Positions 1-1,709 of a DNA stretch of 64,000 bases are shown piece after piece. The position numbers and the translations under genes were made by a program. The DNA is from Vulcanimicrobiota bacterium (GTDB lineage Bacteria > Vulcanimicrobiota > Vulcanimicrobiia > Eremiobacterales > Eremiobacteraceae): positions 224,001 to 288,000 of the forward strand of contig CAWDVP010000002.1 in NCBI GenBank assembly GCA_963805945.1, written 5' to 3'. Positions within the stretch are counted from its first letter, which is position 1. The number at the start of each line of letters is the position of its first letter. Under the pieces are notes generated by a model. It saw only the letters and a list, made by a program, of their open reading frames with translations, had not been told where the DNA came from and made no database searches.

Positions 1-36
1 ATCCTCTCCGAGTTCTACGATTGCTGGAGGCATATC

Positions 37-198
37 ATGGAGCTTGGTGGACACATTCACGCCTTTGCGTTATATGCTGGCGTGTTCTTCGGCCAGCTTG
101 CACATACGCTCGAGACGCTGATCACGGGCGGGGCACACCCGGCCGAGACACTCATCACGGGCGGCGTGCATACCGCGGAAACCCTCATTACCGGATAG
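37..198 (+). CDS. Small repeat peptide precursor, 53 aa: MELGGHIHAFALYAGVFFGQLAHTLETLITGGAHPAETLITGGVHTAETLITG
   Basis: GGAGG at 26-30, ATG at 37, TAG at 196-198. Three ETLITG repeats at an 11-codon period that differ only at synonymous positions. Below the ORF-track size cutoff. Confidence 0.85.
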   Translation: MELGGHIHAFALYAGVFFGQLAHTLETLITGGAHPAETLITGGVHTAETLITG

Positions 199-217
199 GG
201 CGATCATCGTCAGGTCC

Positions 218-1549
218 TCATGCGATCTCTCGGCACAGTAAGTCGACGAGCTGAGGATCGTATTGGGTGCCGGCCCGCTCTGAAAGTACGCGCAGCGCTT
301 CCTGCTTGTTCAGTTGCGTGGTCGCATTGTGACCTGTAAGTAGGCACAAATAATCGCGGGTGATCGCGATAATGCGCGAAGCCACAGGGATGCGCGTCAA
401 GCGCATGCCGTGTGGATAGCCAGTGCCGTCGAATGCTTCGCACTGATGTTCAACCGCATAAGCCACCTCTTCCGGAATGATGCGGGGTGCCTTGCGGAGC
501 ACTTTTCCACCCAGTGTAGGATAGCGAAGGGCCTCTTGCTGCTGAGCGGGCGTCAAGTTAATGCCAGCTCGCAGTTCCGGAGTGAGCTTGCACTTCCCGA
601 TCTCGTGGAATTCCGCCGCCCACGCAAGGTTCTCTAAGTCCGCCTTAACCATGCCAAGCTTGCGGCCCATCTGAACCGCAAGGTAGCGGACGTCGCCGGC
701 GAACTGTGCATCATCAGGACTTAACAGGCCAATGAACTCTCGCATCATCTCGTGGAATTGGTTGACGACGAAATCGCGTTCATCGCGGGCCTCAACTGCT
801 TGGATTATGCGCTCGAACATACGCGTGTGCGCGACGACGTAGTAGAAAACAATAGCCCCTAGAATTCCGCCGAAGCCGTACATCCCAGCCAAAAGGTAGG
901 CCCAAAGAGCCGCGACAAAGCCAGCGCGCCAGTAGCGTACGAACGATGCCGGCTGGCCGAGAATTGCGAATCCTAGGATTACTAGTGCATTGTTTACAGT
1001 CTGCCAGATGATCCCAATCCCCACGACGCCGACGAGAACAAGGGGCGCGTAGAGAAAGTGCGATATTCGCGGCGCGAGGCCGAGAATAACTGCATAGGAC
1101 TGGACCATCAAGAAAACCGCTATAACAGATATCCCCAGTTGACCCGCCAATGCTGGTATCGCTTGGGCGGCTGGGCGACCGGCGGCAATCAGGCGCAAGT
1201 GAACGGCGGAAAGACCGACAACCGCAAGCGGTAGCGCCCACCAACCGACCATCGCCGTGGCTGCCGCTAGTATTGCCGCGACCGGCGCATGCACCGCGCG
1301 GAAACCTTCCTGGGGTCGCTCGTTCAGCGCGAGGAAAGCACCTACCAGCACGACGCTGATTATGGTTGCATACGAAGTGTCAAAATGCGGTGGAACGAGC
1401 ACCAAGAGTGCGGCACCCGCAATCAACAGTGCCCAATAGTAAGCGACTTTGAGTCCCTGTCGCCATGCAACAACATCTTGTTGCAGACCAGTTGCTGGAG
1501 CGCTGATCCGCTCGAGTTGCGCCTGCCCTGCCACGGCCATGACGCTCAC
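218..1549 (-). CDS. Multi-pass membrane protein with C-terminal degenerate HD-GYP domain
   Basis: Hydrophobic N-terminal ~240 aa. C-terminal FHEIGK, DGTGYPHG, IPVASRIIA and GTQYDP motifs typical of the HD-GYP fold. Confidence 0.85.
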   Translation of the reverse strand: MSVMAVAGQAQLERISAPATGLQQDVVAWRQGLKVAYYWALLIAGAALLVLVPPHFDTSYATIISVVLVGAFLALNERPQEGFRAVHAPVAAILAAATAMVGWWALPLAVVGLSAVHLRLIAAGRPAAQAIPALAGQLGISVIAVFLMVQSYAVILGLAPRISHFLYAPLVLVGVVGIGIIWQTVNNALVILGFAILGQPASFVRYWRAGFVAALWAYLLAGMYGFGGILGAIVFYYVVAHTRMFERIIQAVEARDERDFVVNQFHEMMREFIGLLSPDDAQFAGDVRYLAVQMGRKLGMVKADLENLAWAAEFHEIGKCKLTPELRAGINLTPAQQQEALRYPTLGGKVLRKAPRIIPEEVAYAVEHQCEAFDGTGYPHGMRLTRIPVASRIIAITRDYLCLLTGHNATTQLNKQEALRVLSERAGTQYDPQLVDLLCREIA

Positions 1550-1636
1550 CAGTGCCTTTCGTCAGGTCCGCGCCCGGGATAACGTCATATTAGCGAGACG
1601 TATGGGGTCGCGACCCTGTGGATAGTATATCGAACA

Positions 1637-1694
1637 TGTGACGCAAATCCCCACGAATTTGTGACAGCCCGCACAGGGTATGACGCTCATCACG
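1637..1694. promoter_or_regulatory. Three CRP/FNR-like TGTGA-N6-TCACA-type sites upstream of the HD-GYP gene
   Basis: TGTGA-cgcaaa-TCCCC (1637), TGTGA-cagccc-GCACA (1660), TATGA-cgctca-TCACG (1679). Confidence 0.4.
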
Positions 1695-1709
1695 CACACG
1701 TGTTCGAAC

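Follow-up and report, generated by a model that had tools for sequence, protein, structure and literature searches.

At the 5' end of a 64,000-nucleotide stretch of Vulcanimicrobiota DNA (contig CAWDVP010000002.1, positions 224,001 to 288,000; hereafter the window, numbered from its first letter), nucleotides 37..198 form a real, stand-alone gene for a small protein of 53 amino acids (aa) that ends in three copies of the peptide ETLITG. This gene is under purifying selection, and it is co-located and co-diverging with a convergent gene for a membrane protein that carries an HD-GYP domain. Our best reading is that the two make up a two-gene module, present in Eremiobacterota-type genomes, in which the small protein goes together with an integral-membrane HD-GYP protein. 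More tentatively, and with somewhat less than even confidence, we propose that the small protein serves the membrane HD-GYP sensor as its dedicated helical partner or ligand, probably without being exported.

The small gene and its protein family

The window was compared with two further loci, L001 and L002, which a locus scan of representative genomes with a 3-sequence alignment had found in Eremiobacterota metagenome-assembled genomes. The features of the small gene are listed below, where ORF stands for open reading frame and pN/pS for the ratio of non-synonymous to synonymous differences per site.

26-30, + strand: GGAGG Shine-Dalgarno sequence, 6 nt before the ATG
37..198, + strand: small-protein gene, 53 aa plus stop, supported by the ORF listing, by homologues, by pN/pS and by a start that is fixed by a stop codon in L002
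37-39 and 196-198, + strand: start codon ATG and stop codon TAG of the 53-aa ORF
37..111, + strand: N-terminal part (residues 1-25), with invariant H8-A9-F10 and conserved His, moderately hydrophobic and predicted to be helical
112..129, + strand: repeat 1, ETLITG, preceded by AHTL
145..162, + strand: repeat 2, ETLITG, preceded by AHPA, 11 residues after repeat 1
178..195, + strand: repeat 3, ETLITG, preceded by VHTA, with the stop codon directly after it

A reading made earlier from the letters of the window (the sequence-only reading) had reported the GGAGG ribosome-binding site 6 nt 5' of ATG37 and the three cores with their preceding tetrapeptides, and all of these are as it described them. 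It had also held that the peptide, and not the DNA, is what is conserved. The cores differ from one another at 2, 5 and 4 of 15 nt, every difference falling at a third codon position, and Tandem Repeats Finder detects no DNA-level repeat in window 1-400. Hence, the repetition is held at the peptide level, by synonymous codons, just as had been stated. Among the nine orthologous cores of the window, L001 and L002, E-T-L-I is kept using 2, 4, 3 and 2 different codons, respectively, and at the fifth core residue one Cys replaces Thr. The pattern [DE][TSA]LI[TANC] has 5 matches in the six frames of the 64-kb window, 3 of them inside the small ORF.

That the ORF might be the 3' end of a longer one had been named as the point on which the proposal could fail. 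In the window its frame is open back to base 1, through 12 extra codons with no start codon among them, so that the window alone cannot exclude the tail of a longer gene and relatives are needed to settle the matter. In L002 the homologous ATG is preceded, 7 codons upstream, by an in-frame stop, and the codons between them include no start, and the equivalent methionine is the first residue of every family member in the alignment; the longer gene is thereby ruled out. The arrangement of GGAGG, 6 nt and ATG is kept in the window, L001 and L002, among which pN/pS is 0.31, 0.49 and 0.37, with 0.53-0.75 synonymous differences per site. Given this conserved start region and these ratios, the gene is as genuine and as translated-looking as had been claimed. 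Furthermore, no frame other than that of the small ORF is open from end to end of the gene in all three loci; an antisense frame also lacks stops in the repeat segment of each of them, but ends within the gene and encodes a variable peptide. Among 1,966 stop-to-stop segments, a hidden Markov model (HMM) of the family detects a single copy each in the window, L001 and L002. The label 'unannotated' needs correction in one respect: the protein is indeed unnamed, a near-identical JGI copy being labelled hypothetical protein, but protein sets derived from NCBI and ENA already include its exact 53-aa sequence.

An exhaustive phmmer search of 1.84 billion representative proteins with the 53-aa query (E<=0.001) returned 11 matches, of which 7 are small proteins (the query included) and 4 are long proteins made of repeats only. 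A subsequent profile search brought the small proteins to 14 clusters, with lengths of 50-68 aa; homologous small ORFs with repeated cores, which the sequence-only reading had suggested looking for, thus exist in 13 other clusters. The four long proteins (P0006, P0011, P0012 and P0013; 150-426 aa of tandem repeats) match the repeat segment only and not the N-terminal part. They were set aside as low-complexity look-alikes, are in no alignment, and look like translated simple repeats of other organisms, not relatives. P0006 holds many ETLITG-containing 12-mers.

In the alignment of 14 sequences, the invariant columns are M1, H8, A9 and F10, and the N-terminal part is marked by this invariant H-A-F together with further conserved His and Gly residues. 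The tail of every member consists of 3-4 copies of [DE]-x-L-I-x, that is, an acidic residue, a variable one, Leu-Ile and another variable one; the two most distant members have Met-Val, Ala-Ile or Ala-Phe in place of Leu-Ile. Core positions 2 and 5 vary across the family. The repeats are spaced by 11 residues in 25 of 34 cases and by 7-13 residues in the remainder, and a His mostly sits three residues ahead of each acidic core residue. The protein ends exactly one residue beyond the last 5-mer in all 18 sequences examined, in agreement with the hexapeptide-sized repeat unit first seen in the window. Members contain 0-3 Lys+Arg, 4-6 Asp+Glu and 5-9 His, and Cys is absent from the 18 sequences except for one residue in P0009.

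No Pfam or NCBIfam family covers the small protein (the sole row is a 9.8-bit chance match), the ESM Atlas holds no usable match, and the family profile retrieves a single chance row from the PDB (E=1.6). PADLOC has no match to the small protein, nor to the HD-GYP protein and the beta-lactamase-like protein encoded beyond it, and the strings ETLITG, DSLINAG, DSLIAGG and HAFSLH are absent from 8.4 million literature texts. The Pfam, NCBIfam, ESM Atlas, PDB and motif-string searches agree with the earlier remark that the core comes from no described family, and, judged by its sequence, the small protein appears to belong to an unnamed and undescribed one.

The convergent HD-GYP gene and its pairing with the small gene

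The sequence-only reading had pointed to the gene just 5' as a place to look for a TPR/RRNPP regulator, peptidase or modifying enzyme. The conserved neighbour is a convergent membrane HD-GYP gene, which had been overlooked:

218..1549, - strand: HD-GYP gene, 443 aa, convergent with the small gene with 19 nt between the two stops; multi-pass membrane part plus C-terminal HD-GYP domain

The pairing of the two genes was read directly in three loci, namely the window, L001 and L002. Nine further pairs were inferred from a small protein and an HD-GYP protein that share the same source and a contig of equal size:

3973 bp contig: small protein P0003, HD-GYP protein P0022
2768623 bp contig: small protein P0002, HD-GYP protein P0089
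49686 bp contig: small protein P0015, HD-GYP protein P0071
2914 bp contig: small protein P0070, HD-GYP protein P0026
3598 bp contig: small protein P0090, HD-GYP protein P0027
3931 bp contig: small protein P0091, HD-GYP protein P0077
2047 bp contig: small protein P0092, HD-GYP protein P0078
1949 bp contig: small protein P0017, HD-GYP protein P0035
1847 bp contig: small protein P0021, HD-GYP protein P0033

Where the contig measures 1.8-2.9 kb, the two genes must be adjacent. Read and inferred pairs together link 7 of the 14 small-protein clusters, down to 57-61% identity between the HD-GYP proteins. For 10 small/HD-GYP pairs, the pairwise identities of the two proteins correlate (r=0.84, Mantel p=0.0002). 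In the window, the G+C content at third codon positions (GC3) is 0.69 in the small gene and 0.62 in the HD-GYP gene, versus 0.86-0.90 in five neighbouring genes, and the same low GC3 is seen for both genes in L001. This low-GC3 islet (37-1549) may mean that both genes were acquired together, or that both are weakly expressed.

The N-terminal part of the HD-GYP protein is polytopic over approximately residues 20-245, with several membrane-type hydropathy peaks. AlphaFold2 (AF2) places seven helices between residues 20 and 241, and both the hydropathy profile and the AF2 model have these helices joined by short loops only. Residues 1-253 match no Pfam family even at E<=1, and Foldseek finds no credible structural relative of the membrane part in the PDB. 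In a language-model atlas, the protein scores 0.90 to clusters in which 10-22% of members carry PF20972 (MASE9), which we take as a lead only. According to passages of 10.1101/2021.11.05.467447, MASE9 is an 8-segment membrane sensor of HD-GYP proteins whose ligand binding is proposed to occur inside the membrane. The partner is like the MASE9-HD-GYP proteins described there in fusing a polytopic N-terminal membrane part to an HD-GYP domain and in its atlas score; it is unlike them in that its membrane part has no Pfam match and several of its HD-GYP metal His are replaced. The same passages make no mention of a small-protein partner. An intramembrane protease was considered for the membrane part and rejected: none of its His, Cys, Ser or Asp residues is invariant, and it is thus unlike an embedded protease.

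In the C-terminal part, Pfam HD_5 matches residues 287-434 at 1.4e-25. Profile searches of the PDB give V-cGAP3, PmGH and PA4781 as relatives, through their HD-GYP domains only, and Foldseek with the model of the partner likewise retrieves HD-GYP domain structures only. The metal ligands were followed in a profile alignment of the partner family consensus with PmGH (4mcw), the roles of the metal-binding residues being taken from the passages of 10.1101/2021.11.05.467447. In this alignment the first His is an invariant Phe, HD becomes HE in most members, the next His becomes Tyr and HH becomes HQ, while GYP is kept. The full metal-ligand set (His, HD, His, HH, Asp) is not present in the partner family, and from these substitutions the domain (window 218-789) may be non-catalytic or have a different metal site.

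A search with the whole partner gave 48 proteins at E<=1e-5, the best 27 of which (E<=2.8e-78) comprise 25 full-length orthologues with 35-95% identity and 2 fragments. A public protein in the partner's own cluster, P0086, comes from the same 717,026-bp contig and has 296 aa, versus 443 aa for the ORF and 436-457 aa for the orthologues; a start placed too far downstream probably deprives the deposited gene model of much of the membrane part. In L002 (10183-11627, - strand), the HD-GYP orthologue is split into a membrane part of 340 aa and a C-terminal part of 129 aa, and the region of the HD motif between the two is lost. This split gene could be a pseudogene or an assembly error.

Proposed action of the small protein and competing explanations

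The N-terminal stretch had been described as the hydrophobic leader of an exported precursor. The window protein has 0 Lys/Arg, and its mean Kyte-Doolittle hydropathy over residues 6-25 is 0.99, versus 1.6-2.2 in the membrane helices of the neighbouring protein; on these grounds the leader is not of the Sec type. No Sec signal peptide is found in it by Lys/Arg content and hydropathy. Nor was a conserved cleavage motif, as might mark the suggested cut after an Hxx(A/L) spacer, found on either side of the cores, whose flanks are variable. A double-glycine leader was also rejected: Gly-Gly follows the cores in some members only, and the Gly-Gly at residues 4-5 lies too near the N-terminus.

With the 14-sequence alignment, AF2 predicts a single helix over residues 2-52, with a mean predicted local distance difference test score (pLDDT) of 70.6; the block means are 71, 84 and 77 for residues 1-10, 11-20 and 21-30. 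For 3 of the 4 tested members, the repeat tail has an alpha-helical hydrophobic moment above that of shuffled sequences (p<=0.003). A period of 11 residues would keep an amphipathic face nearly in register, and a His three residues before each acid would put both residues on the polar face, which favours an unexported, partly helical peptide.

If the small protein is a dedicated partner of the HD-GYP sensor, it would not leave the cell that makes it, and would there be an acidic peptide, rich in histidine and largely helical. The conserved helix at its N-terminus would dock at the membrane or at the sensor part that the HD-GYP protein has embedded in the membrane. Tandem [DE]-x-L-I-x units, 3-4 in number and usually with a His three residues before, would form a repeating amphipathic His/acid face, and this face would modulate the sensor and hence its cyclic-dinucleotide output, pH or a metal ion being a possible cue. 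Expression of the small gene would be set by a conserved, structured 5' leader. We infer the binding to the sensor, the lack of export, the lack of cleavage and the cue sensed.

Several observations weigh against such a partnership. Co-inheritance alone would be expected to give the Mantel signal, which is partly driven by near-identical pairs. The window, L001 and L002 are broadly syntenic, from the aminotransferase gene (in L001 and L002) through the arginase gene, so that the adjacency could be plain inheritance, and the nine further pairs rest on equal contig sizes, not on read sequence. Three clusters lie on contigs of 2.4-9.9 kb without an HD-GYP match (P0008, P0010 and P0018), and four others on contigs that, at 540-1321 bp, cannot accommodate a whole neighbour. 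The two genes are convergent and form no operon, and the small gene of L002 is intact beside a broken HD-GYP gene. As regards the helix, 1 of the 4 members tested has no significant amphipathic moment, 9 of the 34 repeat spacings differ from 11, the Gly-Gly and Pro in the spacers of the window protein speak against one continuous or rigid helix, and pLDDT over the repeats is only 57-66. Finally, a cleaved multi-copy peptide would explain the identical cores and the fixed C-terminal end at least as well, and processing is for this reason kept as the main rival idea, with the HD-GYP sensor as receptor.

According to that rival, the small protein would be a multi-copy signal precursor that leaves the cell by non-Sec export and is cut into 3-4 identical hexapeptides, for which the membrane part of the HD-GYP protein would be the sensor, in a one-component peptide-sensing loop. 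We consider this possible but doubtful. It would account for copies whose synonymous divergence shows that identity is held at the peptide level, for spacers that vary in sequence and in length (repeat spacings of 7-13 residues), for a C-terminus that, in 18 of 18 sequences, lies one residue past the last core, and for a conserved N-terminal part that resembles a recognition leader, and its receptor would be at hand in the conserved partner, a membrane sensor. Tandemly duplicated pheromones within one propeptide are, moreover, documented for Rap-Phr systems in passages of PMC11343458. In a broad review of the sensory inputs of cyclic di-GMP (c-di-GMP) signalling, on the other hand, a term search finds the word 'peptide' only once (PMC8846402), and the short sensor loops of the modelled partner would suit an intramembrane ligand better than an acidic, soluble hexapeptide. 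The reading further has to do without a signal peptide or a basic N-terminus, without a peptidase or exporter in the loci read, and without a conserved cleavage motif on either side of the cores.

It is also conceivable, again with considerable doubt, that the HD-GYP link reflects inherited gene order and that the small protein acts alone, for example as a metal-binding or pH-responsive peptide at the membrane surface. The 5-9 His and 4-6 Asp/Glu in 50-68 residues, the His three residues before most acids and the amphipathic tail would all suit such a role, as would convergent genes outside an operon and a small gene that is intact in L002 despite the broken HD-GYP gene. What argues for the dedicated partner over a solitary peptide is co-location that, on contigs of 1.8-2.9 kb, persists between HD-GYP proteins with identities as low as 57-61%, GC3 values of both genes well below those of their neighbours, and the finding that no family member stands in another context among the three contexts read.

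The partnership can be taken one step further, to a possibility that we regard as unlikely. The pair would then be a one-component peptide-to-cyclic-dinucleotide module, of a sort for which we came across no description, in which a genetically encoded multi-copy peptide cue comes with its own receptor. The 3-4 identical [DE]xLIx peptides, cleaved or multivalent and uncut, would be read inside the membrane by the MASE-type sensor; the HD-GYP domain of the module would possibly be non-catalytic, and each lineage would have its own core sequence, as in pherotypes.

Literature searches on Eremiobacterota RiPPs (peptides made by ribosomes and modified after translation), on HD-GYP proteins with a small protein or precursor peptide, and on HD-GYP proteins with peptide quorum sensing gave no description of the pair among the matches listed. 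As far as we found, no small protein that bears repeats and is tied to an HD-GYP protein of the MASE type has been described before. Tandem Phr pheromones aside, multi-core RiPP precursors and small-protein regulators of sensors are already known. The membrane-embedded MASE-type sensor parts of cyclic-di-GMP enzymes are mostly without a known ligand. Given that the small gene travels with such a sensor and that its motif changes per lineage, it offers a concrete, synthesisable candidate ligand or regulator, and with the HD-GYP gene it forms a pair compact enough for study in a heterologous host. If the link holds, small-protein or peptide signalling would be tied directly to second-messenger control, and a repeat-bearing family would be added to the catalogue of bacterial small proteins. 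If it fails, a well-supported new small-protein family remains in Eremiobacterota, a largely uncultured soil phylum.

Known systems share parts of this arrangement. RRNPP propeptides come from Bacillota or their phages. The RRNPP(A) propeptides (Phr, PapR, AimP) are like the present family in having a short ORF with its own ribosome-binding site, a conserved N-terminus and several C-terminal peptide copies; unlike them, the family has no Sec signal and no adjacent TPR receptor, its neighbour is a membrane HD-GYP gene and its hosts are Eremiobacterota. The RRNPP comparison made by the sequence-only reading thus stands for the layout, with short C-terminal peptide units in tandem, but not for the signal peptide, the TPR receptor or the Bacillota or phage host. 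A Sec-exported RRNPP propeptide was rejected on the absence of a basic N-terminus, the hydropathy of 0.99, the absence of an adjacent TPR receptor and the wrong phylum.

In AgrD-AgrC, a small precursor with an amphipathic N-terminal helix acts with a receptor that senses through a bundle of short-looped membrane helices, and the present pair likewise joins a small protein with a predicted amphipathic helix to a polytopic, short-loop putative sensor. It differs from AgrD-AgrC in having no AgrB-like enzyme, no thiolactone Cys, an HD-GYP output in place of a histidine kinase, and repeated cores. The proposed action, a protein of ~50 aa modulating a membrane sensor, is also that of MgrB and SafA on PhoQ. 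MgrB and SafA have a true transmembrane helix and no tandem repeats, and as a rule are not encoded beside the sensor; the present family, unlike them, has tandem repeats, and its gene adjoins the putative sensor.

Gene neighbourhood and the 5' leader

In L001 and L002 the gene order is an ArsP_1 permease (-), a class IV aminotransferase (+), a leader of 300-353 nt and the small gene (+), followed by the convergent HD-GYP gene, a class A beta-lactamase-like gene and an arginase-family gene. From the small gene onward, the order in the window is the same. The stop-to-stop gap between the small gene and the HD-GYP gene is 15-17 nt in L001 and L002, compared with the 19 nt of the window. The gene directly 5' in the relatives is therefore a class IV aminotransferase, and not the TPR/RRNPP receptor, peptidase or modifying enzyme that had been suggested for that place. 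The window begins inside the leader:

1..36, + strand: end of a conserved, structured non-coding leader, aligning with the 3' ends of the L001 and L002 leaders

The leader spans L001 9695-9994 and L002 9639-9991, between the aminotransferase gene and the small gene. Window 1-39 aligns with its 3' end, and window 2-15 is identical to L001. The DNA of the leader is better conserved than the small ORF (79% over 231 nt versus about 61%). Its elements comprise a TATAAT-like box, a short palindrome, some 26 nt that are fully conserved, and a GC-rich hairpin of 9 bp. For the L001 leader, the predicted fold has -100.8 kcal/mol (z=-4.86), with 0 of 200 shuffles equally stable, and a long-range helix seemingly keeps its pairing in L002 through two one-sided changes, as judged by eye on the alignment. 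Rfam, whose families include c-di-GMP riboswitches, gives 0 matches in L001 and L002 at gathering scores, and L001 9600-10300 searched at E<=10 yields two chance rows only. The leader may be an undescribed cis-regulatory RNA. Small membrane-associated proteins of Clostridioides difficile that are under c-di-GMP riboswitches are, in passages of PMC13724677, similar in their tie to c-di-GMP and in having a structured leader. They differ in that the present leader has no Rfam match and in organism and architecture, and the likeness is one of description only.

The leader raises the question of whether the locus is a regulatory device in which the peptide is incidental, either as a Leu/Ile/Thr-sensing leader or upstream ORF, or as a convergent transcript interfering with expression of the HD-GYP gene. 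In each repeat, Leu-Ile is the best-conserved pair, the small gene is preceded by a branched-chain-type (class IV) aminotransferase and by a strongly structured leader, the convergent stops are 15-19 nt apart, and no + strand terminator-like site is found in window 1-1700. Nevertheless, we hold both forms of this explanation to be quite improbable: there is no downstream gene on the same strand to attenuate, the regulatory codons are not in runs, residues without a regulatory role are conserved too (the invariant HAF, His and the acidic residue), and pN/pS is well below 1 over the whole ORF. An attenuation leader in particular was rejected, as the next gene is on the opposite strand and the HAF, His and acidic residues are conserved as well.

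Processing genes were looked for in the same neighbourhood. No conserved TPR receptor, peptidase or modifying enzyme lies within 10 kb upstream in L001 and L002, and by Pfam no peptidase, transporter, radical-SAM, ATP-grasp, YcaO or DUF692 gene is found in those 10 kb or in the first 6 kb of the window. Precursors of the cyanobactin PatE type and of graspetides (plesiocin) consist of a leader followed by several near-identical, spaced cores. The small protein is like these multi-core RiPP precursors in its leader and its near-identical short cores with spacers, and unlike them in having no tailoring or processing genes nearby and, in some members, no residues for cross-links. A multi-core RiPP precursor with tailoring enzymes encoded elsewhere in the genome would fit this layout, and the conserved leader with variable core positions 2 and 5, but it is the least probable of the explanations given the enzymes missing from the regions just named, contigs of 1.8-2.9 kb that leave room for the HD-GYP gene alone, and Cys in just 1 of 18 sequences (P0009, one residue). 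A graspetide precursor was rejected, some cores having no hydroxyl or amine donor and no ligase gene being found in these regions.

A TPR-containing gene does occur in one of the loci: L002 2170-5424 (- strand) encodes a 1,083-aa BTAD-AAA_16-TPR regulator (GC3 0.62), 4.6 kb upstream of the small gene, and is adjoined by two more low-GC3 ORFs without a Pfam match. All three are in L002 only and absent from L001. On the other side of the module, a class A beta-lactamase-family gene (Beta-lactamase2, 2.4e-55) occupies 1729-2745 of the window (- strand), 180 nt upstream of the HD-GYP gene and on the same strand. Its product has a hydrophobic stretch near the N-terminus, as seen by eye, and the gene is found at the same position in L001 and L002.

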